In this document: positions 3,198-32,000 of the stretch, in pieces | Position numbering within the stretch: the stretch's first letter is position 1 | How the letters are laid out: each line of letters starts with the position of its first letter | Position numbers and translations under genes: made by a program | NCBI GenBank assembly: GCA_020632335.1 | Contig: JACKFV010000001.1 | Span: 270,001-302,000, forward strand | DNA from: Candidatus Saccharimonadota bacterium | Lineage (GTDB): Bacteria; Patescibacteriota; Gracilibacteria; UBA4473 | DNA length: 32,000 nt | Direction of reading: 5' to 3' | The notes under the pieces: model-generated | Database searches by the model: none | Told to the model about the DNA's origin: nothing | Seen by the model: only the letters and a program-made list of their open reading frames with translations

Positions 3198-5096
3198 CTA
3201 CTGTTGCACGGGCACCAGGTTTTCGTAGTCCTCCACATACATCTCGGGTATCACTACCGGGTAGCCGAGAGAGGTTGCTGTCATAGGCTCGGCGCTCATC
3301 ATGCTGCCCTCGCGTCGGTCATCGGCCATGATGCCCATACGCTGCCGCAGGGTGTAGTAGGCCTGTTCTTCCTGGCTGGTGTAGGTCTGGCGGTAGCGCA
3401 CCCCACGGAAGGAACGCTGGATCCCCCGCACTCGGCTGCCTCCAATAGGGTAACGGGTGTCATCTATCACGGGCATTGTGGGCATAGTGGTGGGCGCTGT
3501 CATCCCCTCCGGCGCGGGCATCCCCCAGCCAAAGAGCGGCGATACCACCTCCAGGAAGGCCGAAAGTGGCTGAGCCCCCACCGGCGGCGTGATGGTACTG
3601 CGGTAGCGTGGCTCAGTCTTCTGCGTCATGGTGACGGTCAGCGCATCCTTGATAAAGCGCCGTACACCATAGGTATCCTCTACCCCCAGGGTAAAGTCCA
3701 CGATCACGTCTTCATTATTCATGCCCATCTGCAGGCGGTGAATATCCAGCACGTACATATCCGGGTCATAGCTAAAGTTAGATGCCAGGCGGATACTCCC
3801 CTCGTACACCTCATAGGCATCACTGCGGATGAGGTCAATAACCATCAGTGGGAAGCGCTCGGTGTCCTGAATCTTGGGATTATACACCTCTCCGTAGAGT
3901 CTAGCATCTATACGGTTATCGGCCCAGGTGCCCTCCAGCACGGTGTCTTTGTTCTTCTGCACGAGGATGCGGTCAGCGTTGTACTGGAAGAGCATGGTGT
4001 CGCCGTTCATCACCACCGTCGCGCGGAAGAGCTCTGGGGCTATCTCTACCATGAGTGTGCCCTCTACTTCACCCGTGATACCGCTCAGCAGTACGCCGCT
4101 GAGGGTCATCTGGCGCATGTCGCTCTGGTTGATGCGCAGCTCGCCAGAGAAGACCACGGTGGGCTCTGTAGTGGCGATTTGGTCGTCCATACTCTGGAGC
4201 ATCGCCTCCACCATCCCCATCGGGCCAGACATACCGCTCGTCATCAGCCCTGGTACTTGGGCCTGCACAAAGTGCGCGTAGGCCTGCACCATAACGCGAA
4301 TGTTCTGCATCATCTGGACATCTGTCATCTGCACTGGCACGATGATACTGCGTCCATCTCGCGTGAGGTCCCCCGCGCTCTGCAGCAGCGTCATGCTCTC
4401 CAGCGCCGTGCGCATCTGAGTGAGGAAGGTTTCTTGCTGGGCTTTGCTGTCCAGCGCGAGGAGGGCGGTGAGCATCTGGCCCACCAGAGGCGTCATCTCC
4501 GTCGGCATGCCCAGGGCAGCCATGTCGCTCTCGTTCAGCGTGAACCACTGCGCTACGACGCTCTGGTAGCTGTTTTTGCGGTCGCTCGTCCAGCGGGTGA
4601 TCTCGAGTTCTGGGAAGGTAGACTCCAGCTCGCTCACGCGGAAGTAACGGTCATCTCCCTTCTGCAGGAGGTCTGCGTTGGTCTTGAATACCCGATGAGT
4701 ATCCATCTCTCGTGAGGGCATCGCCTCCTCTGAGTAGTCTGCCTCTAGCTGCAGCGCTAGATTCAGCGTGCCGCTGGGCTCCCCATTATAGGCATACTGC
4801 TGGTCATTCTGCGTGAAGGCCGTCTGCTGCAGGCCCATGGTCAGTGCCAGGCGCTCTATATCCGCCTTGTCGTCAAAGGCCCCAGGCATCAGCGAGGCCT
4901 TGAGGTCTGTAGTGCGGTAGTAGTTATCCGGCATCATCGCTACCTGGTGCTCCAGATCAGTCATAATGCTGTCTACCAGCTGGCTGTGGAGGGCGGTGAG
5001 TACCTCGTCACTGGTGCTGGGCATCAGCGGGAGGGCGCTATAAGAGCACCCCGACACCGCTAGCCCCAGAGCCACAAGAAGAGAAAGTCGTTGCAT
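3198..5096 (-). CDS. methionine-rich lipoprotein, function unknown
   Basis: The long minus-strand ORF is listed as 3198-5147 from a TTG start. The ATG at 5096 gives a classical lipoprotein signal, MQRLSLLVALGLAVSGC, with lipobox VSGC. I recognise no domain. Confidence 0.6.
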   Translation of the reverse strand: MQRLSLLVALGLAVSGCSYSALPLMPSTSDEVLTALHSQLVDSIMTDLEHQVAMMPDNYYRTTDLKASLMPGAFDDKADIERLALTMGLQQTAFTQNDQQYAYNGEPSGTLNLALQLEADYSEEAMPSREMDTHRVFKTNADLLQKGDDRYFRVSELESTFPELEITRWTSDRKNSYQSVVAQWFTLNESDMAALGMPTEMTPLVGQMLTALLALDSKAQQETFLTQMRTALESMTLLQSAGDLTRDGRSIIVPVQMTDVQMMQNIRVMVQAYAHFVQAQVPGLMTSGMSGPMGMVEAMLQSMDDQIATTEPTVVFSGELRINQSDMRQMTLSGVLLSGITGEVEGTLMVEIAPELFRATVVMNGDTMLFQYNADRILVQKNKDTVLEGTWADNRIDARLYGEVYNPKIQDTERFPLMVIDLIRSDAYEVYEGSIRLASNFSYDPDMYVLDIHRLQMGMNNEDVIVDFTLGVEDTYGVRRFIKDALTVTMTQKTEPRYRSTITPPVGAQPLSAFLEVVSPLFGWGMPAPEGMTAPTTMPTMPVIDDTRYPIGGSRVRGIQRSFRGVRYRQTYTSQEEQAYYTLRQRMGIMADDRREGSMMSAEPMTATSLGYPVVIPEMYVEDYENLVPVQQ

Positions 5097-5218
5097 AAGA
5101 GGGAGGGTAAAACGCTGGCACTGTAGCATCACCGCAGTAAAGCGCAAGGGAATCTCCGCCCTATTTAGCTTGTAATAGTGGGGGAAATCAGTAGCATATT
5201 TACAATTTTTTCACCACT

Positions 5219-6190
5219 ATGTGGAACCGTTTCATCGCTGTCATGGGGTACTTTTTTCTCTTTTGCCTGCTGCTGCTCATCGCGGGGTATGCCGTCTTCG
5301 GCCATGAGCGCATGGGGAGCGCCATCCGCAGCCTGCTGCTGCCGGAGGTAGCGCCGTCGGAATTCAGCGCCGTGACGCCTGAGGAGATAGCCACCGTGCG
5401 CGCCAAGCTGACTGAAATCCAGCAAGAGAGTGCTGCAGAGGAAGCCCCAGGCGACCCCTACACCGTGTGGAATACCACCATGGAACTCCGCACCGAGAAG
5501 CCCCAAGACAAGCACGAGGCCGTGCGTGAGCTGCTAGCCAATGCCGGCGCGCAGAACCTCAACTCCAACTGCTGGGCGGACTACTACAACCAGGTGGAGG
5601 AGCGTCATGGGCAGGTGCAGTGCAGCGTGAGTGGGAATGTCCCGCTCGAGAACCAAGACCAGCTGGAGAAAGACCTGGCGAGATTTGGGGAAGTGATGAA
5701 CCGCTTCCGTAACAGCTACAGTAACCGTGAGGGCTATAGGTACAACCTGACCGAGCTGGAGTCGCTCTATCGCACACGGCTACTGCTCTTTGAGTCGCTG
5801 AAGGCTAGTGCGCCCGAGTCGGCACTGCTGCTCACCCAGCAACTGACGGACAACCAGCAGCAGATCACCGGTATGGAGCAACAGCGTCGCCAGCAGGATA
5901 TGGAGCGCACGGCACCCTACTTCAACATCACGCTCTACCCCGAGGGCTGGACGGGCGGCTCTGGCCCCATGCCAATGCCCATGCCGGTGGACGAGCCCAT
6001 CTACCGCATAGAGCCCCTGGAAGACGCCGCGGCTATCCTCGACCAGGTGACCGAAATGCTGGACCAAACCGAGCAGGATTTCCTCCCGGTTGAGGACGCT
6101 GGCGATACGCCGGTTACCACTCCTCTAGCCCCAGAAGCGGGCAATAGCACCGGCACCAGCACGATTACTCCCGCACCGTCACGCCGCTAG
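5219..6190 (+). CDS. N-terminally membrane-anchored hypothetical protein with a Gln-rich coiled-coil region and a PMPMPMP tract
   Basis: The 323-aa ORF has an N-terminal TM helix (FIAVMGYFFLFCLLLLIAGYAVF). The antisense ORFs have junk composition. No family is recognised with confidence. Confidence 0.55.
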   Translation: MWNRFIAVMGYFFLFCLLLLIAGYAVFGHERMGSAIRSLLLPEVAPSEFSAVTPEEIATVRAKLTEIQQESAAEEAPGDPYTVWNTTMELRTEKPQDKHEAVRELLANAGAQNLNSNCWADYYNQVEERHGQVQCSVSGNVPLENQDQLEKDLARFGEVMNRFRNSYSNREGYRYNLTELESLYRTRLLLFESLKASAPESALLLTQQLTDNQQQITGMEQQRRQQDMERTAPYFNITLYPEGWTGGSGPMPMPMPVDEPIYRIEPLEDAAAILDQVTEMLDQTEQDFLPVEDAGDTPVTTPLAPEAGNSTGTSTITPAPSRR

Positions 6191-17583: not shown

Positions 17584-18240
17584 ATGAGCCTGACCACCAC
17601 TATAGAGAGCTGGCTGCCCGTCATTGCAGAGCACCAAACACTAGCGTACGGCGTGCTCTTCCTTGGGTCATACCTGGAGACCATCATCGGTGTGTGCTTC
17701 TTTATCTATGGGGAGGTGTTCTTCTTAGCAGGGAGCATTGCAGCGGGTGCGGGCACACTTGATATCTCTCTGGTGACGGGCGTGCTGCTGCTGGGGGGAG
17801 TGCTGGGAGACATCACCAGCTACTTCCTGGGGGAGTGCTATGGGTATAGGTGGTACCGCGCGCTGGAGCATATTCCCTTCATCCGGCACTACATAACGGA
17901 AGAGAACTACCTCAAGGGCTGCAGATTCTTTGAGCAGCATGGGGCAAAGAGCGTCTTTTTTGCCCGGCTACTAGGCCCTCTCTCCTGGATAACCCCTTTC
18001 CTCAGCGGTATCTACCGCCTGCCATTCCGGTCCTTCCTCCCCTATGACGTGCTGGGGGTTGTCGTCGGCATTGGGCAGTTTATCGTGGTGGGGTACTTCT
18101 TTGGCGTCCACTATGACCGTATCCTCCCCGTGATGTCGGAGTACCTGAGCATCGCCGTAGGAGGCATCCTACTCCTGCTGGTGCTGCGCTATCTCTCCCG
18201 TGCCAGGGCATTCCGTAAAGAACCCCCTGCTCAAGAGTAA
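17584..18240 (+). CDS. DedA / SNARE-associated family membrane protein
   Basis: DedA motifs are present: ETIIGVCFFIYGE and FFEQHGAKSVFFARLLGPLSWITPFLSG. Confidence 0.85.
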   Translation: MSLTTTIESWLPVIAEHQTLAYGVLFLGSYLETIIGVCFFIYGEVFFLAGSIAAGAGTLDISLVTGVLLLGGVLGDITSYFLGECYGYRWYRALEHIPFIRHYITEENYLKGCRFFEQHGAKSVFFARLLGPLSWITPFLSGIYRLPFRSFLPYDVLGVVVGIGQFIVVGYFFGVHYDRILPVMSEYLSIAVGGILLLLVLRYLSRARAFRKEPPAQE

Positions 18241-18257
18241 GGGAAGTAATAATAGTC

Positions 18258-18347
18258 TGGTGCACAGGAGAGGACTCGAACCTCCACGAGAAAAAATATC
18301 TCACAAGACCCTCAATCTTGCGCGTCTACCAATTCCGCCACCTGTGC
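18258..18347 (-). tRNA. tRNA-Leu (anticodon GAG), type II with a long variable arm and genomically encoded CCA
   Basis: The reverse complement folds by hand. The acceptor stem is GCACAGG/CCTGTGC and the D arm is GCG-GAATTGGTAGA-CGC. The anticodon stem CAAGA/TCTTG carries the loop TTGAGGG. The variable arm is GAGA...TCTC, the T arm is GGAGG-TTCGAGT-CCTCT, and the discriminator A is followed by CCA. Confidence 0.88.
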
Positions 18348-18448
18348 ATAAAAGAACCCCCTGCAGGATAGGAGTCCCCACAAAGCTGTCAAAACAATTT
18401 GCCTTCTCTCATAGAGAGGTCTATACAGGTGCCGTACACTCATCTGGT

Positions 18449-20455
18449 ATGGAACAGAGTCCGTTTTTCCTCTATACTCTCTCGTTTTTGCTGCTGCTGG
18501 GCATAGCGTGCATCGTGCAGCTCTTTATGCAGAAGATCCGCCAGCCGGCCAGCCTGGGGCTGCTGCTGACGGGGATTATCCTCAGCCTGCTGCACACCAC
18601 GCCCATTGGGCAGTACTTCGTGCTGGAGTTCAGCCCCGAGCTACTGCTGTATATTTTCCTCCCGACGCTGATTTTTGAGTCGGCCTCCAGCCTGAAACTC
18701 CGTACGCTGCGGTCACTGCTGCCTGAGATTCTCTCACTCGCCACGGTGGGGCTGGTGCTCTTTATCCTCATTATGGGGGTCACGCTACACTATGTGGTGG
18801 GGTTCCGCTGGGCGCTGAGTTTCCTCTTTGCCAGCATCATCGCGCCCACAGACCCCACTGCGGTAGTGGGAGTGCTCAAGCGCATTAGCCTGCCGCAGAA
18901 GCTCCGAACGCTCATCGAGGGGGAGAGCCTGGTGAACGACGGTACGTCAGTGGTGGTGTTTCAGATCCTCCTGGGGGTCATCGTCGCAGCAGAGCTGCAC
19001 TTTACTCCGGGGTTTTTCCTCGTCCAGGCCGAGCATACCTTCCGGCATATCTTCGGTGCGCTAGCAGTGGGGGGCGTGATGGGGGGGGCTTTTCTCCTCG
19101 CGCTGCGTAACACGCACTACCGGCCGGTACAGCTGGCTATTAGCTTCCTGCTGGCGCACAGTACTTTTCTCATTGCGGAGGGGATTTTTCACGTCTCGGG
19201 CATCATCGCTACCCTCACTGCGGGGCTTATCCTCGGGAATCTCATCGGGGGCCGTATGGAAGAAAAATCAGCGGAGATCTTCCACGAAGTGTGGAATTTC
19301 CTCGGGTTTCTCTCCCATGCCATGATCTTCCTGCTCCTGGGGATGAAGATCGGTACGCTGGATTTCCTCCCCTACTGGAAGGAAATCCTGGTCACGAGCC
19401 TACTGGTGATCTTCTTCGGCCGACCGCTGAGCGTACTGCTCAACCTCTGGGTGACTAATCTCTTCCGCCCTGCTGCACAGAAGATCAGCCTCACGCACCA
19501 GGGGATCATCATCTGGGGGGGGCTCCGTGGGGCGCTGAGTGCGGCCATGGTGCTGCTGGTGCCCAGCACGCTCCCCTACGCAGACCTGCTCGTAGTGCTG
19601 GTGACGGGCTGCATTATGCTCACTTTCCTCATCAACGCCACCACGCTGGAGACCGTGATGAAGAAAGTCCACGAGCGCCAGCGCGGCTTCTCAGACTCTG
19701 TGCGAGAGATGGAGACCGATATTCTCGTCGACGAGCAACTGCGCCTGGAGCTAAAAGAGCTCTCAGAGAAGTCACTGCTGTCTCCTCCGGTCTACGCCGC
19801 CATGGAGAAGCGCTATGCCAAGCATGAGCGCAGCACCGCTAAGCGCCTGGCGGAGATACAGAACCAGCTGAGTGGCGAGGAAACCCGTGAGATAGAGAAG
19901 ATGCTGAACTACCACGTGCTGATGATAGAGCTGCAGGAGTACCACAAGCTCTTCCAGCTGAAGGAGATCTCTGAGAAGCGACTGCAGGTGCTGCAGGAGA
20001 GCATCTGGCGGCAGGTAGACCGACTGGAGCTGGATATCCTCCCCGAGGAACACGAGAAGATCGGTGGCAAGACGGCCCCCCACATCCCCAAGCAGTGCCG
20101 CTGGCAGCAGAGTACGCTCTTTGGCCTGCCCTATAAGTGGTGGCGTCGCAAGCGCCAGAAGCAGATCTTGGAGCGGCTAGACCACTACCGCGCACGGGCG
20201 CTTTCGGGCAGGGCTGTCATCCAGCAACTCCAGCACATGCACCAGATGAAGGAGCTCCAGTGCGAGTGGCCTATGATAGACCGTATCATCGCGCGCTATG
20301 TCGCCTGGGTGGCCAACGCCGAAGAGAAGGCAGAGGCCCTGCGGACGGAGTACCCCGAGCTGCTCTTTGAGGCCGAGATGCAGGTGGCCGAGCACTACTG
20401 CTGCCTGCGGGGGCAAGAGCTGCGTGACGAGATCTCCGCCATGCGCCACGCCTAA
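18449..20455 (+). CDS. Na+/H+ antiporter, CPA1 (NhaP-type) with a long helical cytoplasmic C-terminal domain
   Basis: There are roughly 11-12 TM segments with FASIIAPTDP and GESLVNDGTSVVVF motifs. The start is set at ATG 18449 because the listed start at 18200 runs through the tRNA gene. Confidence 0.85.
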   Translation: MEQSPFFLYTLSFLLLLGIACIVQLFMQKIRQPASLGLLLTGIILSLLHTTPIGQYFVLEFSPELLLYIFLPTLIFESASSLKLRTLRSLLPEILSLATVGLVLFILIMGVTLHYVVGFRWALSFLFASIIAPTDPTAVVGVLKRISLPQKLRTLIEGESLVNDGTSVVVFQILLGVIVAAELHFTPGFFLVQAEHTFRHIFGALAVGGVMGGAFLLALRNTHYRPVQLAISFLLAHSTFLIAEGIFHVSGIIATLTAGLILGNLIGGRMEEKSAEIFHEVWNFLGFLSHAMIFLLLGMKIGTLDFLPYWKEILVTSLLVIFFGRPLSVLLNLWVTNLFRPAAQKISLTHQGIIIWGGLRGALSAAMVLLVPSTLPYADLLVVLVTGCIMLTFLINATTLETVMKKVHERQRGFSDSVREMETDILVDEQLRLELKELSEKSLLSPPVYAAMEKRYAKHERSTAKRLAEIQNQLSGEETREIEKMLNYHVLMIELQEYHKLFQLKEISEKRLQVLQESIWRQVDRLELDILPEEHEKIGGKTAPHIPKQCRWQQSTLFGLPYKWWRRKRQKQILERLDHYRARALSGRAVIQQLQHMHQMKELQCEWPMIDRIIARYVAWVANAEEKAEALRTEYPELLFEAEMQVAEHYCCLRGQELRDEISAMRHA

Positions 20456-22908: not shown

Positions 22909-24027
22909 ATGAAGAAGCAGAATATTATCCTCATCGGGTTCCACGGATGTGGGAAAGAACTCTTCGGGAAGGAGCTGGCACGGCAGCTGGATTTGCCCTA
23001 CGCGGAGCTGGATACCGAAGTGGAGTACCTTATCGGGTGGAAGACCCTGCCCTTTGTGGAGGCCTTTGGCTGGCAGGTATATAAGGAGCTGGAACAGCGC
23101 GTGGTGCATGATTTCTCACGGAACTTCAGTGGCGTGGTGGCCAGTGGCGTGACCACAGTGGAGAACAGCAAGAACCTGGATAACCTGCAGAAGACCGGGT
23201 TTTTCCTCTTCCTCAAGCCGGACTTTGAGCAGATAAAGCAGCGCATCCTCGAGAAAGAGGTGCACTATCCGCTCATGCGCCTGCACCCCATGATGAGCCT
23301 GGAGCAGGAGCTGGAGATCATGTGGAACCAGCGCAAAGACATCTATAGCGCCATAGCCGACAAAGAAGTGGTATATGACCTGGACGGCGACATCACCGCT
23401 GAGGTAGCCAAAGTAGTGGAGGGGCTGGATACCTTCGAGAAGCCGCACGCACTGGGCAGCAAGAGCGTGGTATTCTTCTGCGACCGGCACGTGCAGCAGC
23501 TGGAGGAGCTGGTGAAGCTGCAGAGCCGCGGGCGCATCCCTCACCTGGACGTGCAGGCTATCGTGACTACCACCCCGTCTGAGGCGCTGGAGCAGCACGC
23601 CAAGGCGCTGAATACCCGGCATCTCATTCACCTCAGCCAAGACGGCACCGATAGCGACAGCTACCACCGAGAGATCCTCGGGATTATCCGTGAGTATCAG
23701 CCTGATGGCGTGGTGCTGAAGAGCTGGAGTGAGGATTTCTCGCCCCTGTACCTGGACCAATACGGCGAATTCACCTATAAGATCTACCCCTGGATAGAGC
23801 CCAAAATGCGCGATATGGACCGCGATGCCATTTTTTATAACCTCATAGACGATGCACACAAGTACGCCGGGGTGACCATACAACGGCTGCAGGGCATGAG
23901 CGGCGACAGCGAGAATGTGCTCCAGCGCAAGATCCTCATCCAGACCGACCACACCCCAGAGACGCTCCGTGCGAGCATAGAGCGCCAAGAGGCCCTGGGG
24001 GTCTGTGAACTGCTGGAGCGACGCTAG
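22909..24027 (+). CDS. fusion protein: shikimate-kinase-like P-loop domain plus PurN/formyltransferase-N-like domain, both with non-canonical catalytic residues
   Basis: Residues 1-175 are collinear with AroK (IILIGFHGCGKELFGKELARQLDLPYAELDTEVE). Residues 185-370 are collinear with PurN (VVLKSWSEDFSPLYL...KIYPWIEP compared with VVLAGFMRILSP.F....NIHPSLLP). Confidence 0.7.
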   Translation: MKKQNIILIGFHGCGKELFGKELARQLDLPYAELDTEVEYLIGWKTLPFVEAFGWQVYKELEQRVVHDFSRNFSGVVASGVTTVENSKNLDNLQKTGFFLFLKPDFEQIKQRILEKEVHYPLMRLHPMMSLEQELEIMWNQRKDIYSAIADKEVVYDLDGDITAEVAKVVEGLDTFEKPHALGSKSVVFFCDRHVQQLEELVKLQSRGRIPHLDVQAIVTTTPSEALEQHAKALNTRHLIHLSQDGTDSDSYHREILGIIREYQPDGVVLKSWSEDFSPLYLDQYGEFTYKIYPWIEPKMRDMDRDAIFYNLIDDAHKYAGVTIQRLQGMSGDSENVLQRKILIQTDHTPETLRASIERQEALGVCELLERR

Positions 24028-24926
24028 AGCTGGATGCGTATGCCGCCCTCATCGTCAAAGCGCTTCTCTATCACCCGGTCGCGCAGGGGTCTGGTGGTGG
24101 GAATGGGTGTCTCTTCCAGAGCGTGCCGCTCGGCCTCCAGCGCTGCTAGGCGTGCCCGGAGTGCATCAAGGTCCTCTGCCACTGGGGGGGGAGAATGCAC
24201 CGGGGCTGTCGGCTGCAGTGGCAGCTCCTGCGCGGTCTCAGTGCCCGTGACGTGCCGGCCGATGAGATTGGTCAGCAGGCTCTTGATGCCCGTGTCCTCC
24301 TGCAGATTCTTCTGGTGGACCATACGCTCGCAATAGGCCTCTATGCGCTTAGCGACGCGGTCTGGGTGGGGGAGTTTATCAAAGATATGGATATCCCCCC
24401 CAGCGGCCTTGAGGAAGTGGAGCGTCCCGTAGCCGTAGACAAAGGCGCGCCAGCCACGCTTCTCCACGGCTATTTCATCGAGGTTCCAGTAGTCTATCCG
24501 CACTGCGCGGCGGTTGAGAAAGCTCTGCCACTCCACAATCATGAGGTTAGCGTTGGTCAGCAGCAGGGCATTAAACCACCACCACAGCAGGTGCCGGAGG
24601 ATTTTTACTCCCCCCAGAGCGAGCAAAAAGAGTGTCACCAGCAGCAGCCCCTGCCGCACCTGCTGGCTATAGATGGGACACTGCACGGCGTCAGAGTAGA
24701 GCGAAAACCGGGCGCTGAGGCCCTCGCCGCAGTTGTAGGGGTAGAAGTAGTAGAGCAGCCCCGCCAGCACAAAGAAGACACAGGCGCTGAGCAGTATGCG
24801 GCTGAGCGTGAAGGTCAGGCGCTTGCGGTACACGGCCTCCACGTACTCCTCGGCCTCCAGCATGCCCCCAAACCCCAGGTAGCCGTGGGTCAGCGGACGA
24901 AGCCAGGCACGCAGCGCGTTGATCAT
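24024..24926 (-). CDS. membrane-flanked bacterial PH domain (bPH_2/YdbS-like) protein with a C-terminal coiled coil
   Basis: Two TM helices are followed by LLTNANLMIVEW...RAFVYGYGTLHF, and the tail contains DLDALRARLAALEAERHALEE. Its ATG abuts the rluD stop codon (TAGATG). Confidence 0.55.
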   Translation of the reverse strand: MINALRAWLRPLTHGYLGFGGMLEAEEYVEAVYRKRLTFTLSRILLSACVFFVLAGLLYYFYPYNCGEGLSARFSLYSDAVQCPIYSQQVRQGLLLVTLFLLALGGVKILRHLLWWWFNALLLTNANLMIVEWQSFLNRRAVRIDYWNLDEIAVEKRGWRAFVYGYGTLHFLKAAGGDIHIFDKLPHPDRVAKRIEAYCERMVHQKNLQEDTGIKSLLTNLIGRHVTGTETAQELPLQPTAPVHSPPPVAEDLDALRARLAALEAERHALEETPIPTTRPLRDRVIEKRFDDEGGIRIQL

Positions 24927-26658: not shown

Positions 26659-27099
26659 TCAAGAGGATTTCGTGCCGTGGCTATCCAGTAGCGCCGCCAG
26701 GTTCTCGATGGTATTACTCGCCACCGCCTCCTTCCCCGTGAGGACCTGCGCAGGGGCCTCCGTCAGGCGAAAGCTCTGCGTCACGCTCACGAGCGGCTCG
26801 CCCGAACCCATCTGCCAGTAGCGCCGGGAGGGACGGAAAAAGAGCTGCTCTGAGAGCGTTAAGATGAACTGCACCAGCGTCATTTCTTGGTAGGTGAAGA
26901 AGGCAAACGCCGCCGCAATACCGAGCGGAAACCACAGCAGCACTGACTCGATGAGGTTGAGCGCGTAGAGCTTGCCCACCGAGGTATAGAGCCCGTAAGA
27001 CGCAAAGAAGCCGATGAGCAGGTAGATCAGCTGCCGAAAAGACACAAACCAGAAGATCTTGTCTTCGCGGTCTATGTCTTGGGGAACTTTGAATCGCAT
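26659..27099 (-). CDS. PrgI-family (VirB3-like) small membrane protein
   Basis: The N-terminus MRFKVPQDIDREDKIFWFVSFRQLIYLL matches the PrgI-family signature (..KVPqnId.EDKi...lt.rQ..yl) and is followed by two TM helices. Confidence 0.65.
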   Translation of the reverse strand: MRFKVPQDIDREDKIFWFVSFRQLIYLLIGFFASYGLYTSVGKLYALNLIESVLLWFPLGIAAAFAFFTYQEMTLVQFILTLSEQLFFRPSRRYWQMGSGEPLVSVTQSFRLTEAPAQVLTGKEAVASNTIENLAALLDSHGTKSS

Positions 27100-27167: not shown

Positions 27168-29459
27168 CTAGCGGCAGTCCTGCGGGCCGTCACACTGCTG
27201 GTAGGCATGCTGCCCCACCCACTGCTGCACGCAGGTGTCGGGAGTGGTGCCGGCGTCCATACAGCGCTGGAAGGCCGCCCAGGGCATAGAGCCGTCGTTC
27301 TGCGGGGTGGATACCTTACACGGGTAGCCAGCCTGCACCAGATAGCCAAAGCTGGTGGGATTCACGGCCTCCTCACAGATGCCCACGCTCGGCATAGCGA
27401 CGTCACCGGTGTTCTGGCTGGCCAGCGGGGTGATGCGGTAGCTGGTGCCGAGGGAGTTGAAATCGCTCTCGGTCACGTGCACGCAGTACTTGGTGATCTC
27501 ACAGCTTAGGTCGTTGCGGGCCTCTAGGTAGTCAGTACCCGCGGGGTGGTCATAGGGCAGGCAGGATTTCATCACCACGCACTGCTGCTCGGGGCTCTGG
27601 TAGTAGGGCTGGTTATTCACCCACTCGCCTTCCCCGATCTCCTTATGCTTGCAGTAGATGGCGTCATCGTAGGCAAAGCAGTTGAAGGTCACCGGTACCG
27701 GAGCGGGTGTAGTACAGCTGCCCAGGGAATCCCCATGGCTCAGGTGGCCCTTCAGCGAGTTCTCATCTACCGTGATGGTCTCGGCTTTGGAGGTGTCTGG
27801 CGCGTGGCAGAGGGTGATTTTGTCGGTGGGGGCACCACAGTCGGTGTCGCTCCCACACATGCGGTAGCCCTGGCTGACGGCCCACTCCGCGCTACAGTCT
27901 ACGGCAGATTTCTTACTATTCTGCATACAGAGGGCGAATCGCGCATAGCCGGGGTCTGTAGGTTGTGGCCGGCGCGCCGTACACTGGGCATCGGTACAGA
28001 TGTTCACCGCGACAATGTCTGACTCGGTGAAGGTCACCAGCTCCACCGGACCGGTATAACCATTATCCGGGAGCTCGGGGCACTGGGAATCCGCCGTGCA
28101 CGTCATGCGGTTATTCTTCTCGCCATAGGCAGCGTAGCAGTCGTCCAGAGGGGCCTGGTTGTACTTCACACACTTATAGAGCTCGTCATACCCCGGCGAA
28201 TAGGGGTCGACGATGTCCTCTATGCACTGCTGGCCATAGTTACAGTAGCCAATGGTGAGGGTTTCTCCCTCAGGGGCCCCTCCCCCAGAACCGCCACCGC
28301 ATTCGTTATCAGTACTGCAGCTGCTCAGGCCATTTGCCTCTGCCCACGCCGCGCCACAGGTAGCCGCGTCGCCGGTGGACTGCATACAATCCAGTAGATC
28401 TGCGTACCCGGCACTCCCCGGCTGGGGCAGCTGTGGCACACAGGCAGGCGCCCCGAGGGTACTGACACCACAGGTACTCACGAGTGGAGCAGTGGGGTCA
28501 TCCGTAGGCGGCGCGTCTACCCCTGCCACACATGAGGCTCCATCAGAGCCACTTACGCTATCCCCGGTGTCCAGCAGTGTGCTGACGCCAGTAGCGGTAT
28601 TAGAGAGGAAGAGCTTTCCGTCATTCTGGTAGAGGTAGAGCCGGCCATCTGCATGGAAGAATGCCGCCCCTGCCGAGCCCTGCACGGCCGTCTGCGCGGG
28701 GCCAACGTAGCTGGTGGTCCCGGTATTGGGGTTGATCTTCACGAGGCGATCTGTGCCGCTATCAAAGGCGTACCAGTAACCATCAAGCGGATTACGCGCG
28801 ATGTCGGCGATATTGGGGACGCTCCCCCCCGGAGGCGCTATCAGTGGCACCTGCTGGGTCACTGTGGGCGGAGTAGCGGTGACATCAATGAACTGCAGGG
28901 GGCTGGTACCGCCATTCACCAGGTAGGTTCCGTCAGCCAAGAAGGCCCCCGAGAAGGCGCCGCTCTGTACCCCGGTGATGGCTCCCACCACTGCTTCTTC
29001 ATCGTTGGCGCCTATGCGCAGCAGGTCACTCCCCGCTATGGCGTAGATAAAGCCGTCCACGGGGTTAAACGCCGTGGCGTTATACGCGGTGCTCGAGGTG
29101 CCCACAACCGTGCTGGTCATGGCTCCGCTGCCGTCTACCACCAGCCGCTGGAGCGTTGTGCTCCCTCCACTAGTGAGCGAGAGATAGAGGTCTGCATTAC
29201 ACGCAAAGGGAGTCGGTGATGCCCCAGTGCCAGCAGCCGGGGATTTTTTTACCCCGTTATTATTTTCATTCGTTGTGGCGTTGCTGTTGGCATTCGTGTT
29301 GGCATTCCCCGTGCCGGCGCTCTCCTTGCCCACGGCCTGCGCTTGGAGCTGCTCCCCCTGCAGGGCGGCGAGTTCTCTGGTCTGCTGGTCATAACGCACA
29401 TAGAACATCCCCGCGAGAAAAGCGAGTGCGAGGCCAAACAGGAGAGAGAATCGACGCAT
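27168..29459 (-). CDS. large secreted or anchored Cys-rich surface protein of unknown function
   Basis: The 763-aa ORF has an N-terminal signal/anchor (MRRFSLLFGLALAFLAGMF) and an Asn-rich linker. A propeller-like region follows, with recurring YNA.AFNP.DGF.Y, DGYWYAF and DGRLYLY blades. After that come four six-Cys modules and an ICH..HGD motif. Confidence 0.7.
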   Translation of the reverse strand: MRRFSLLFGLALAFLAGMFYVRYDQQTRELAALQGEQLQAQAVGKESAGTGNANTNANSNATTNENNNGVKKSPAAGTGASPTPFACNADLYLSLTSGGSTTLQRLVVDGSGAMTSTVVGTSSTAYNATAFNPVDGFIYAIAGSDLLRIGANDEEAVVGAITGVQSGAFSGAFLADGTYLVNGGTSPLQFIDVTATPPTVTQQVPLIAPPGGSVPNIADIARNPLDGYWYAFDSGTDRLVKINPNTGTTSYVGPAQTAVQGSAGAAFFHADGRLYLYQNDGKLFLSNTATGVSTLLDTGDSVSGSDGASCVAGVDAPPTDDPTAPLVSTCGVSTLGAPACVPQLPQPGSAGYADLLDCMQSTGDAATCGAAWAEANGLSSCSTDNECGGGSGGGAPEGETLTIGYCNYGQQCIEDIVDPYSPGYDELYKCVKYNQAPLDDCYAAYGEKNNRMTCTADSQCPELPDNGYTGPVELVTFTESDIVAVNICTDAQCTARRPQPTDPGYARFALCMQNSKKSAVDCSAEWAVSQGYRMCGSDTDCGAPTDKITLCHAPDTSKAETITVDENSLKGHLSHGDSLGSCTTPAPVPVTFNCFAYDDAIYCKHKEIGEGEWVNNQPYYQSPEQQCVVMKSCLPYDHPAGTDYLEARNDLSCEITKYCVHVTESDFNSLGTSYRITPLASQNTGDVAMPSVGICEEAVNPTSFGYLVQAGYPCKVSTPQNDGSMPWAAFQRCMDAGTTPDTCVQQWVGQHAYQQCDGPQDCR
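27174..28472 (-). repeat. four protein-level copies of a six-cysteine module within the 763-aa ORF
   Basis: Modules lie at aa 330-387, 406-460, 488-541 and 695-762 (nt 28299-28472, 28080-28244, 27837-27998, 27174-27377). The shared spacing is C-x(4-19)-C-x(17-18)-C-x(9-10)-C-x12-C-x5-C. A conserved PGY/GY and an aromatic residue three positions after the fourth Cys are also shared. Confidence 0.7.
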
Positions 29460-29552: not shown

Positions 29553-30119
29553 TTATAGTACTACCGCACCACCAGATACCCACCAGTAGAACCCGATGCC
29601 AAAGCCCACCAGGCACAGCACTCCGAGGGCGTGGTCCAGTGGCGAGCCAGTAGGCACCCGCCAGCCGCGAGGCACCACATGCCGGCACTGGGTGATGCGC
29701 AGCAGCGGCCAATAGAGTGGCACTCCGTGGGGTGTCATAGCGTCCAGCAGCAGGTGGCTTGTATACCCGAAGAAGAACGCCAGTGCACTGAGCCACGGCG
29801 TGGGGGCGGAGAGCAGCAGCGCTATACCCCCTACCAGCAGGCCTCCTATAAGAGCAGCCACCAGCGTATGGGTATAGGTGCGATGTGCAAAGAGCCGGCT
29901 GCCGAGCACACACAGCGGCATAAAGGGCTTAAAGGTGAAGCGACGGGTCAAGCGTAAGCCCATATGCGCCACGGTGGCCTGCTGCCCAGAGGCGTCAAAG
30001 TCAGGAAAAACGCCCCCCAGGCCTGCCAGCGCCACATGGGTCAGGCTGAGTTCGCCCGCCAGTGGAGCCACCAAAAGGCTCATACACAGGCCGGCGGCCA
30101 GGTGCGTACGGCCTATCAT
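29553..30119 (-). CDS. YdjM-family (DUF457) membrane-bound metal-dependent hydrolase
   Basis: The N-terminus contains GRTHL. Motifs FPDFDA, FAHRTYTHTLV and GYTSHLLLDAMTPHGVPLYWP are collinear with E. coli YdjM (LPDIDH, FGHRGFTHSLL, GYLSHILADMLTPAGVPLLWP). Confidence 0.8.
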   Translation of the reverse strand: MIGRTHLAAGLCMSLLVAPLAGELSLTHVALAGLGGVFPDFDASGQQATVAHMGLRLTRRFTFKPFMPLCVLGSRLFAHRTYTHTLVAALIGGLLVGGIALLLSAPTPWLSALAFFFGYTSHLLLDAMTPHGVPLYWPLLRITQCRHVVPRGWRVPTGSPLDHALGVLCLVGFGIGFYWWVSGGAVVL

Positions 30120-30994
30120 GCCCCCGTGCGGAAGTGGTAGATCTCCTGCGCTACGGACTCCGCGTGCGGAATAACCCTCAGTCGCGTGACGCCCTGGGTA
30201 GCGGAGTTGATCTTGAGCGTGCCATAGCCGAATACCCAGCCCCAGAAGCCGGCTTTTTCTGCTGTTACCTTCCCGAGGGTAGCCCAGAGCTCGGACTGCC
30301 GCCAGGTGCCAAAGAGCTCTCTATTCTGTACAATCAGTCGCTCAGACGTGAGAAAAAGCAGGTCGTGGTTATAGTCCAGCCAGTGCCCCCAGAAGAAGAT
30401 CAGCGCCGACACCCCAAAGCACGCCGCAAATATATGCCCCCAGAGGCTGCCCGGTAGTGCCCACCACATATAGATGGCCGCCATCATACAGAGGAGCACC
30501 ACGCCCATACCCCGGTAGAACACCACCGGGTGGTGCTGCACCACCGCCAGCAGGCGCTCACCAGGGAGCGGCGCATACACATGCCCCTCCACCGCAGCGG
30601 CGCGGTCAGCACTGGTGACCTCACTCCCTCCGTAGAGGCGGGCAAACTTGGCTATCCGTAAGATACGCAGTGGCGCAAACACCGGCGGGATGAGGTCTAC
30701 CCCCACCAGCGGCAGGTAGAACGGCACCACCGCGAGGAAGTCGATCAGCCCCCACCAGCTGAAGATATACCGCAGGCGGTCCCTCGCCGAGAGGATACGC
30801 AGAACGTACTCCACGGTGAAGAGCCCCAGCGCCAGGCGTTCGAAGGTCTGTACCAGCGGCCACTGCTGCGCGCTCCCCCAGATCTCAAAGGGCAGCAGCG
30901 CCACCGAGAGCAAGATCACCAGCACCAGCAGCCCGTGGAAGAGGCGACTCAGCGGCCGGAAGGGTTGGAAGAGGAGACGGTGCAGCCATGCCAT
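30116..30994 (-). CDS. pore-less voltage-sensor domain (S1-S4) fused to a membrane-flanked bPH_2 domain
   Basis: Residues 17-121 are collinear with S1-S4 of the K+ channel at 2356. S2 has FTVEYVLRIL, S3 has WGLIDFLAVVPF, and S4 reads LRILRIAKFARL with R/K at every third position. Residues 146-288 form two TM helices plus LFLTSERLIVQ...WVFGYGTLKIN. There is no TVGYG-type P-loop. Confidence 0.7.
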   Translation of the reverse strand: MAWLHRLLFQPFRPLSRLFHGLLVLVILLSVALLPFEIWGSAQQWPLVQTFERLALGLFTVEYVLRILSARDRLRYIFSWWGLIDFLAVVPFYLPLVGVDLIPPVFAPLRILRIAKFARLYGGSEVTSADRAAAVEGHVYAPLPGERLLAVVQHHPVVFYRGMGVVLLCMMAAIYMWWALPGSLWGHIFAACFGVSALIFFWGHWLDYNHDLLFLTSERLIVQNRELFGTWRQSELWATLGKVTAEKAGFWGWVFGYGTLKINSATQGVTRLRVIPHAESVAQEIYHFRTGA

Positions 30995-31048: not shown

Positions 31049-31076
31049 TTGCTCAGTGGTCATGGTTTTTTATCAT
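31049..31076 (+). promoter_or_regulatory. sigma70-type promoter predicting a leaderless SLH-protein mRNA
   Basis: TTGCTC (31049-31054), 16 nt, TATCAT (31071-31076), 6 nt, then ATG at 31083. Confidence 0.4.
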
Positions 31077-31082
31077 ACGGGT

Positions 31083-32000
31083 ATGGTGTGTCCTCGCATT
31101 CTTCGCCTTCGGAGTGGGTATCTGGCGTGGGGTATCTCTCTCGGGATCCTCAGTATATTGCTGCCACTGCAGAGCCTAGCAATAGGATTTAGTGATAATA
31201 GCGCTATTCCCTCCTGGGCGGGGCCGGCCATCTATTCGCTGGGGGAGCGGGGTATCATCACCGGGAATGGCGATGGGAGCTTTGCCCCTGACCGGCCGGT
31301 GAACCGCGCGGAGTTCGCGAAGCTCTTTGTCGGTCTGCACAATCTGCCGGGAGCGGCACTGGCCGCGGGGCAGTTTACTGACGTCAGCGGTGACGAGTGG
31401 TATGCCCCTTACGTGGGGGCCGCGGTGGCCAAGGGCTGGCTGAATGGCTATAGCGACAAGACCTTTCGCCCGGGGGACCCCATCAACCGTGCCGAGGTAG
31501 CGAAAATCATCGGGGAGGCGCTGGACGAGCCCTTTAAAAGTGATATCCCTGCCGGAGCGCCGTGGTATGATAAGTACTTCTATAAGCTGAATGATACCGG
31601 GCTGATGGCGCACGGAACGGATTTCTCCAACGCCGAGCCGGCCGTATACCCCACCCGCGCCGAGGTGAGCGAGCAGCTCTTCCGGTATATGATCTACCGG
31701 CAGTTCCTCACCACAGAGGATCTGCAGCCCTTTGACGGCTTTGACCCGTATACCGCTACGGGGGGCGTGATGGTGGTGAGTGACAGCCTCAGCAGCACAG
31801 ACCCCCTAGCAGATGCGAGCATGTACGAGTATATTGAGCCCTTCCCGCTGCGCTACCCCATCAGCCCCAATGCCGGCACGATGCATATACAAGACACCGG
31901 GCAGCTGGAGGCGGGCTATTATCTAGAGCCAGACGAGCGGAATATCGCGCTGCACTCGCTGCAGTTTACGTGTGAGAAGACGGCCGAGTGCAAGCTCTAC
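31083..32000 (+). CDS. SLH-domain surface protein, 3' end cut by the window edge
   Basis: Frame 3 is open from 31017 to the window end. The ATG at 31083 gives the signal peptide MVCPRILRLRSGYLAWGISLGILSILLPLQSLA. SLH repeats follow: FSDNSAIPSWAGPAIYSLGERGIITGNGDGSFAPDRPVNRAEFAKL and FTDVSGDEWYAPYVGAAVAKGWLNGYSDKTFRPGDPINRAEVAKI. ATG 31062 is an alternative start. Confidence 0.8.
   Translation, partial: MVCPRILRLRSGYLAWGISLGILSILLPLQSLAIGFSDNSAIPSWAGPAIYSLGERGIITGNGDGSFAPDRPVNRAEFAKLFVGLHNLPGAALAAGQFTDVSGDEWYAPYVGAAVAKGWLNGYSDKTFRPGDPINRAEVAKIIGEALDEPFKSDIPAGAPWYDKYFYKLNDTGLMAHGTDFSNAEPAVYPTRAEVSEQLFRYMIYRQFLTTEDLQPFDGFDPYTATGGVMVVSDSLSSTDPLADASMYEYIEPFPLRYPISPNAGTMHIQDTGQLEAGYYLEPDERNIALHSLQFTCEKTAECKLY

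Follow-up and report, generated by a model that had tools for sequence, protein, structure and literature searches.

The stretch of DNA analyzed here, called the window, comprises 32,000 nucleotides of a Candidatus Peribacteria contig (JACKFV010000001.1, positions 270,001 to 302,000). At positions 27168..29459 of its minus strand lies a gene, present in the list of open reading frames (ORFs), that encodes a Cys-rich protein of 763 amino acids plus stop. This protein (P0001) has a 100% self-match in the protein database and is identical to NCBI MCB9809630.1 / H6771_01470, a hypothetical protein of a Candidatus Peribacteria bacterium encoded on a 630,865-bp contig. Candidatus Peribacteria is a class within Peregrinibacteria, a phylum of the candidate phyla radiation (CPR), and the source organism is uncultured and ultra-small. 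The protein combines a predicted beta-propeller of the DUF6923 family with four copies of a six-Cys module that matches no characterized family, and its architecture suggests a surface protein that functions in attachment. A preliminary description of the gene had given the coordinates of the ORF exactly, and every peptide that it cited is found in the protein.

Cys makes up 4.46% of the residues of the protein and 7.4% of its C-terminal 434 residues, compared with 1.18% for the other 25 genes of the window. Thirty-two of the 34 Cys fall within these final 434 residues, and the chain ends in CDGPQDCR. In this region, the preliminary description had recognized the pattern C-x17/18-C-x9/10-C-x12-C-x5-C. 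The pattern indeed occurs four times (residues 340-387, 412-460, 493-541, and 714-762), and each occurrence is preceded by one more Cys (residues 330, 406, 488, and 695) located 9, 5, 4, or 18 residues upstream, respectively. If 32 Cys are placed at random in 434 residues, the pattern is expected 0.00015 times. When the Cys are held fixed and all other residues are shuffled, the four copies give z = 10.9, and none of 20,000 shuffles reaches the observed score. A chance origin of the four-copy Cys pattern is excluded.

The four modules are all encoded on the minus strand. Module 1 spans residues 328-389 (positions 28293..28478; Cys330, 340, 358, 368, 381, and 387), and module 2 spans residues 404-462 (28074..28250; Cys406, 412, 430, 441, 454, and 460), with predicted helices at residues 424-433 and 436-446. 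Module 3 spans residues 486-543 (27831..28004; Cys488, 493, 511, 522, 535, and 541), with predicted helices at residues 505-514 and 519-529. Module 4, at the extreme C-terminus, spans residues 693-763 (27171..27383; Cys695, 714, 733, 743, 756, and 762). A hidden Markov model (HMM) of the module scores the four copies at 65-76 bits (72 bits for module 1 and 76.5 bits for module 4). Because the copies are only 16-37% identical to each other, the four modules are old duplications.

Two independent Logan assemblies (SRR12358675 and SRR12358676) match residues 308-763, the C-terminal 456 amino acids, at 100% identity, and therefore the repeat region is not an assembly artifact. Both assemblies (L015 and L016) stop exactly at position 28538 of the window, which corresponds to residue 308. 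This position is the boundary of the propeller and the Cys-rich half, and no 20-mer there recurs inside the window. Strains that differ in the propeller-coding part could account for this break, as could a repeat at another place in the genome. The sole tandem repeat of the gene at the DNA level is a 12-bp unit at positions 29267-29307, which encodes an Asn-rich linker.

How widely the module occurs, a question raised by the preliminary description, was addressed by searching 1.84 billion cluster representatives exhaustively with HMMER and a profile of the four copies (E ≤ 0.001). This search returned three other proteins (P0005, P0006, and P0007), and two of these, P0005 and P0006, are true carriers in which the Cys framework is conserved. 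P0007, a leucine-rich-repeat protein, was rejected because its match is limited to module positions 11-31 (SSGYAPFYEC) and lacks the Cys framework. The real members all occur as singletons in a set of about 15 billion sequences.

P0005 (626 amino acids) is 28% identical to P0001 (E = 3e-48) and is the only full-length homolog. It consists, in order, of an anchor, an acidic linker, a DUF6923 domain, one module, a beta-rich Cys domain, and a terminal module. The Cys spacing of this terminal module (18-18-9-12-5) is identical to that of module 4 of P0001, and the two, which are 30% identical, are orthologous. P0006 is a fragment in which one clear module (37.7 bits) is followed by an SLH domain. 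Its contig (L013) starts (positions 1-19) and ends (about 1530-1566) in Nextera transposase adapter sequence (AGATGTGTATAAGAGACAG and CTGTCTCTTATACACATCT). Therefore, the public assembly is untrimmed, and P0006 is truncated at its N-terminus.

The seven available copies of the module (four in P0001, two in P0005, and one in P0006) share the framework Cys1-x4..18-Cys2-x17..23-Cys3-x9..11-Cys4-x12-Cys5-x5-Cys6. The Cys4-x12-Cys5-x5-Cys6 portion is invariant in all seven copies, which come from three proteins from unrelated samples. The copies also have in common that Cys2 is followed by a Pro-rich stretch, helix 1 is preceded by an aromatic residue, and Trp or Tyr stands three residues past Cys4. 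The preliminary description had considered that the spacing might be a coincidence of low-complexity sequence, but it is kept in the only homologs found.

Word-seeded searches returned nothing when the C-terminal 434 residues alone or a seven-module alignment served as the query. With the full-length protein, the same method found, besides the protein itself, only DUF6923 relatives, and it is evidently blind to the module. Scans of genomes and metagenomes with an alignment of P0001 and P0005 yielded 11 DUF6923 loci, on Deinococcus, Dokdonella, Photobacterium, Dyadobacter, actinobacterial-type, and Bacteroidota-type contigs. The module HMM was run against all six-frame ORFs and matched none in these 11 loci and none elsewhere in the window. 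One contig with few ORFs (L009) was considered to use an alternative genetic code; it is actually a low-GC Bacteroidota-type contig with a giant ORF that runs off the locus. Because the 37.7 bits of the P0006 module lie near the detection limit for diverged single copies, the module family is probably under-sampled, and diverged single-copy members have probably been missed.

A model of module 1 was calculated with AlphaFold 2 (AF2) from the seven-copy alignment, and is confident, with a mean predicted local distance difference test (pLDDT) score of 87.1 and a predicted TM score (pTM) of 0.61. In this model, a beta-hairpin carrying Cys1 and Cys2 is followed by two helices carrying Cys3 and Cys4 and by a short tail carrying Cys5 and Cys6. 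In a full-length AF2 model of the protein, the C-terminal half of which is of low confidence, each of the four copies again contains this helix pair.

The preliminary description had been unable to assign the module to a named family, and our searches agree with this assessment. No match to the module was found in Pfam (isolated pieces, up to E = 10) or NCBIfam (up to E = 1), PDB sequences searched with the complete protein gave no match, and a Foldseek search with the module model detected no fold match in PDB (best E = 8) or BFVD. Profiles of EGF, ShK, Kazal, saposin, and the Myxococcus Cys-rich repeat likewise do not match the module. The CHCH proteins Mdm35 and TRIAP1 were rejected as relatives, as their PDB-sequence profile matches are insignificant (E = 0.55-1.7). 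CHCH (twin CX9C) proteins resemble the module in being small disulfide-stapled helix-turn-helix units. However, they have two CX9C motifs, one per helix, whereas the module has a single x9/10 spacing across the inter-helix turn, with Cys3 and Cys4 on different helices. In addition, the module has a beta-hairpin and six Cys, and is extracellular and bacterial. Thus, no characterized family accounts for the six-Cys module, which is an undescribed and very rare domain. The architecture that contains it is a new variant of a kind of protein already known.

In the region between modules 3 and 4, the four modules given by the preliminary description stand, but two additional disulfide-type elements (residues 545-692) had been overlooked. 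The first is a two-Cys motif (KITLCHAPDTSKAETITVDENSLKGHLSHGDSLGSC) at residues 545-585 (positions 27705..27827, minus strand), which reads KITLCH...HLSHGDSLGSC and has no Pfam match. A strand-strand-helix structure (E549-552, E558-564, and H566-572) is predicted for it with low confidence. The motif aligns to a gap in P0005, and hence is absent there. The pattern [IL]CH-x(9-12)-[TL]-x-V-x(6,7)-HL-x-HGD-x-x-G-x-C also forms the extreme C-terminus of a plasmid-encoded thrombospondin-type-3-repeat protein of Rufibacter tibetensis (WP_062546166; VLICHKGQTLCVAQSAVKAHLAHGDEVGAC; L014 1501-1605). Found in these two proteins but lacking a model in Pfam and NCBIfam, the CH...HGD...C motif seems to be a mobile mini-domain that has escaped annotation and is carried by secreted proteins across phyla.

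The second element, at residues 586-692 (27384..27704, minus strand), consists of a beta-rich domain with six Cys (594, 603, 627, 633, 653, and 659) plus a linker, and was delimited from the P0005 alignment. The domain has no Pfam match, and its strands are predicted with low confidence. It is kept in P0005, where it corresponds to a second BLAST segment (E = 3e-25). P0001 and P0005 each have six Cys in this domain, of which four are conserved and one pair is displaced: C627 and C659 of P0001 are replaced in P0005 by Cys at the positions of W613 and Y620. That a pair of Cys has moved, not a single Cys, is as expected of disulfide partners.

The Cys count is even in every sub-unit of the protein (2 + 4×6 + 2 + 6 = 34). 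These even counts, the extracellular context, the paired relocation of Cys, and the one disulfide-formation protein reported for the class (PMC4736985) suggest that all 34 Cys are disulfide-bonded, and each module would accordingly contain three putative intramodule disulfides.

The DUF6923 beta-propeller occupies residues 85-312 (28524..29207, minus strand), is flanked by Cys87 and Cys310, and was delimited by using Pfam, the AF2 model, and Foldseek. The preliminary description had reported blade-like motifs here and had guessed at a DUF6923-type domain. Consistent with this guess, residues 97-311 match Pfam PF21959 (DUF6923; model positions 7-233/234) with 102.3 bits, compared with a gathering cut-off of 27 bits (E = 4.6e-29), and are modeled as a beta-propeller. 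P0005 scores 93 bits against the same Pfam model. The full-length AF2 model, built with a five-sequence alignment, is confident in the propeller region (pLDDT of about 75-90), which contains 20 beta-strands.

When the propeller model is compared with PDB by using Foldseek, YWTD and NHL six-bladed propellers are matched with a probability of 1.00. The matches include LRP6 (E = 9e-9), LDLR, the sensor domain of PknD, nidogen, and the designed protein Pizza6. The 20 modeled strands would suit five four-stranded blades, whereas the best matches are six-bladed, and the blade count may be five or six. All five aligned DUF6923 proteins retain C87 and C310, and a ring-closing Cys87-Cys310 disulfide is plausible. 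A literature search for DUF6923 found no paper.

Upstream of the propeller, residues 1-22 (29394..29459, minus strand) consist of MRR and an 18-residue hydrophobic stretch (FSLLFGLALAFLAGMFYV), and could be a signal-anchor or a signal peptide. P0005 carries a counterpart of this hydrophobic segment, also of 18 residues. Inspection of residues 1-22 reveals no A-x-A cleavage site, and residues 2-42 are modeled as one continuous helix in the full-length AF2 model. We interpret residues 1-22 as a putative signal-anchor with N-in/C-out orientation. Residues 23-84 (29208..29393, minus strand), which may serve as a stalk, comprise a helical segment, apparent in the model, and then a low-complexity Asn/Thr-rich linker (GNANTNANSNATTNENNNG). 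With a pLDDT of 30-48, this region is disordered in the model, and P0005 has an acidic, Thr-rich linker at this position. The hydrophobic segment and Asn-rich linker that the preliminary description placed at the N-terminus are thus evident in both sequence and model.

Proteins with the same N-terminal propeller after an export signal (24-35% identity) are found in Actinomycetota, Bacteroidota, Deinococcota, and Vibrionaceae (P0002-P0004, L009, and L010). These DUF6923 surface proteins share with P0001 the flanking Cys pair, an extracellular location, and a long C-terminal extension. Their extensions are composed of Ig-like DUF11, DUF7507, or CARDB repeats, thrombospondin-type-3 repeats, or lectin domains, and P0002 has an LPXTG-type end. 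None carries the six-Cys module, as judged by an HMM scan of all fetched loci. Because the anchor candidate of P0001 is N-terminal, its propeller would be proximal to the membrane and its Cys modules distal, in contrast to these proteins.

A more distant parallel is offered by the YWTD propeller-EGF pairs of the LDL-receptor family and nidogen, in which an extracellular propeller is likewise followed by small six-Cys, three-disulfide modules. This resemblance is an analogy only, given 10-15% identity, and EGF domains are all-beta with a different Cys spacing, whereas a hairpin and two helices are predicted for the module.

A previous study of Peribacteria described Cys-rich extracellular proteins with a presumed function in attachment (Anantharaman et al. 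2016, PMC4736985). According to that study, Cys makes up 1.67% of the proteome, twenty proteins average 7.2% Cys, and one disulfide-bond-formation protein and S-layer genes are encoded. The Cys-rich proteins of Candidatus Peribacter riflensis come from the same class as P0001, are exported and enriched in Cys, have in some cases propeller-type annotations (FG-GAP, lactonase), and are proposed to function in attachment (PMC4736985). However, they are about 1,655 amino acids long, are encoded in a 14-gene block, and are weakly similar to Myxococcus Cys-rich repeats or to pappalysin. This set is a descriptive class and not a homologous family. With its predicted N-terminal export signal and elevated Cys content, P0001 belongs to the same descriptive class. 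Because such attachment proteins were described in 2016, P0001 represents a kind of protein known before, and its novelty lies in the module alone.

Based on these observations, we propose that P0001 is a membrane-tethered surface attachment protein in which the propeller is the binding head, and the disulfide-stapled mini-domains provide rigidity and possibly a second binding surface. We assign this proposal a probability of roughly 0.55. In such a scheme, the protein would be exported by the Sec pathway to the surface of the Candidatus Peribacteria cell, and the short N-terminal signal-anchor helix would hold it in the cytoplasmic membrane, N-in/C-out. The helical and Asn-rich, low-complexity stalk would lift the remainder of the protein off the membrane. 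The DUF6923 beta-propeller, probably closed by Cys87-Cys310, would be the main head for binding a ligand or partner. It would be followed by a chain of small, rigid, disulfide-stapled units: three tandem modules of ~60 residues, the CH...HGD...C motif, the beta-rich domain, and the fourth module. The modules most likely would be oxidation-stabilized structural or binding units that keep the distal part folded outside the cell. The conserved C-terminal unit, formed by the beta-rich domain and the terminal module, may provide a second binding surface.

The role of such a protein would most likely be attachment to, or recognition of, another cell or surface. An attachment role fits the symbiotic lifestyle proposed for CPR bacteria, and agrees with the published view of the Cys-rich extracellular proteins of Peribacteria (PMC4736985). 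The fact that DUF6923 domains head long surface proteins in other phyla supports a role of the propeller as a binding head.

Several points weigh against this proposal. The disulfide pairing of the module Cys and the binding role are both inferred. Cleavage of residues 1-22 would set the protein free, unless some other part retains it. In the full-length model, the C-terminal 450 residues, and with them the arrangement of the modules, are predicted with low confidence (pLDDT of 20-40). With 4.5% Cys and 763 amino acids, the protein is less extreme than the Cys-rich set of P. riflensis (7.2% and about 1,655 amino acids), and the exhaustive module search found no sequence relative among the published Cys-rich proteins of that organism. 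Finally, because the module family is extremely rare, the role cannot be general to the group.

The genes around P0001 bear on two other interpretations. A gene for a PrgI-family (VirB3-like) type IV secretion membrane protein (26659..27099, minus strand; Pfam PF12666, E = 3.5e-13; named PrgI family protein by NCBI) lies 68 nucleotides downstream of the P0001 gene on the same strand. No convincing terminator was found between the two genes, and counts from the promoter and terminator scan were no better than those from shuffled sequences. Both genes are part of a co-directional run that encodes YdjM, P0001, PrgI, L28, SpoU, and RluD. Most other genes of the window have housekeeping functions (TGT, aldolase, PGK, UvrC, EPSP synthase, MutL, topoisomerase I, shikimate kinase, RluD, SpoU, and L28), and ion channels and glycosyltransferases are also encoded. 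The genes neighboring P0001 are not Cys-rich, and no Cys-rich gene cluster surrounds it within the window. An ORF at positions 31050-32000 of the plus strand, which runs off the end of the window, encodes two strong SLH domains (Pfam E = 1.6e-28). This ORF is about 1.6 kb upstream of the P0001 gene, on the opposite strand, and diverges from an ion-channel gene at 30116-30994.

Elsewhere in the window, ORFs at 3198-5147 (minus strand), 5219-6190 (plus strand), and 24024-24926 (minus strand), whose products have 649, 323, and 300 amino acids, have no significant Pfam match. The 649-residue product is Met-rich and has a lipoprotein-like N-terminus (LVALGLAVSGCS), and the 300-residue product has two hydrophobic segments. 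A GTG-started ORF at 18200-20455 (Na+/H+ exchanger) overlaps an opposite-strand tRNA-Leu(GAG) gene at 18258-18347, and the exchanger gene probably starts at a site farther downstream.

The P0005 gene (L012 4499-6379, plus strand) also adjoins a gene of a type IV secretion system (T4SS). It begins about 70 nucleotides downstream of a co-oriented gene for a VirB4-type ATPase (L012 2368-4428, plus strand; DUF87/AAA_10/P-loop_TraG). This contig has a GC content of 41%, compared with 60% for the window, and no other synteny exists between the two loci. GT4 glycosyltransferases encoded near both were considered as a sign of synteny and rejected, because they are not orthologous. Synteny with Candidatus P. 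riflensis was likewise rejected, as neither the L28 nor the virB4 neighborhood is conserved. A partial gene convergent with the P0005 gene (L012 6392-6751, minus strand) gives a sub-threshold match to polysaccharide pyruvyl transferase (E = 0.004). The polysaccharide pyruvyl transferase family makes the wall polymer that is the ligand of SLH domains.

These associations raise the possibility that P0001 is a surface accessory of the Patescibacteria T4SS. In this role, it would serve as an adhesin or contact factor and place the secretion machine on a host or partner cell, much as PrgB-type adhesins do in Gram-positive conjugation systems. PrgI and VirB4 are core components of the Patescibacteria T4SS and are essential in a cultivated Saccharimonadia strain (PMC12102498, 2025). 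The same study states that monoderm T4SSs require surface adhesins and that none has been detected in Patescibacteria, so the occurrence of P0001 beside prgI and of P0005 beside a VirB4-type gene, on an otherwise non-syntenic contig, is suggestive. PrgB-type adhesins of Gram-positive (MPF-FATA) T4SSs are also displayed on the surface and encoded beside T4SS genes, as proposed for P0001. However, P0001 has no sequence or domain similarity to them (Pfam) and no LPXTG motif.

Despite this gene context, we consider a T4SS accessory role unlikely, and the functional link between P0001 and PrgI is hypothetical. Only two loci are available, with a different T4SS gene beside each. VirB4, VirB6, and TrsD are absent from the window, where the remaining genes are housekeeping genes, and neither locus has a complete T4SS cluster. 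VirB3 genes in the related class Gracilibacteria are mostly apart from virB4, with 4.7% associated (PMC12102498), and virB4 of Candidatus P. riflensis is flanked by pspA-like and RecJ-like genes and has no neighbor of the P0001 type. Three members of the module family are known, compared with a T4SS that is nearly universal in the phylum. The supplement of the T4SS paper makes no mention of DUF6923, propeller, or cysteine. A still more doubtful extension holds that proteins of the P0001 type are the missing T4SS adhesin in some Peregrinibacteria-like lineages, where they would be kept beside T4SS genes for docking, with the module as the host-facing tip.

The SLH domains point to a different possibility, that P0001 is a structural component of the envelope or S-layer and not an adhesin. 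Its Cys modules would then attach to the wall or S-layer of the cell itself and keep the propeller at the surface. In P0006, the module is directly upstream of an SLH domain, and an SLH-protein gene is located near the P0001 gene on the other strand. The terminal module is at the extreme C-terminus in both P0001 and P0005, as is often the case for wall-binding modules. However, binding of a polymer by the module is an assumption of this explanation, and the obvious anchor of P0006 is its SLH domain, not the module. P0001 itself has no SLH or other wall-binding domain (Pfam), and already has an N-terminal candidate for a membrane anchor. Peribacteria do encode S-layer proteins (PMC4736985), but on balance a structural role of this kind appears improbable to us.

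A third explanation, that P0001 is a secreted enzyme with a lactonase- or lyase-like propeller, or a sensor with an extracellular sensing domain as in PknD, is very improbable. In its favor, one Cys-rich Peribacter protein is annotated as a lactonase (PMC4736985), and the sensor domain of PknD is one of the many propellers that the propeller model resembles. However, the propellers matched best in structure (YWTD of LRP6 and LDLR, nidogen, and NHL) have binding functions and are not enzymes, Pfam and NCBIfam give no enzyme family match, and only about four residues would be cytoplasmic, which leaves no signaling output domain.

CPR bacteria, or Patescibacteria, are thought to live attached to other cells, and few of their surface proteins are understood. 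As a candidate surface attachment protein, P0001 provides a defined example, with a recognizable binding head and a small disulfide-rich domain that is modeled with confidence and has no structural relative in PDB. A new family could be registered for the six-Cys module, which also lends itself to structure determination. If the association with PrgI and VirB4 is not functional, P0001 would be one more lineage-specific surface protein of the type noted in 2016. If the link is true, however, the protein would be a concrete candidate for how an essential T4SS that has no known adhesin contacts its target.

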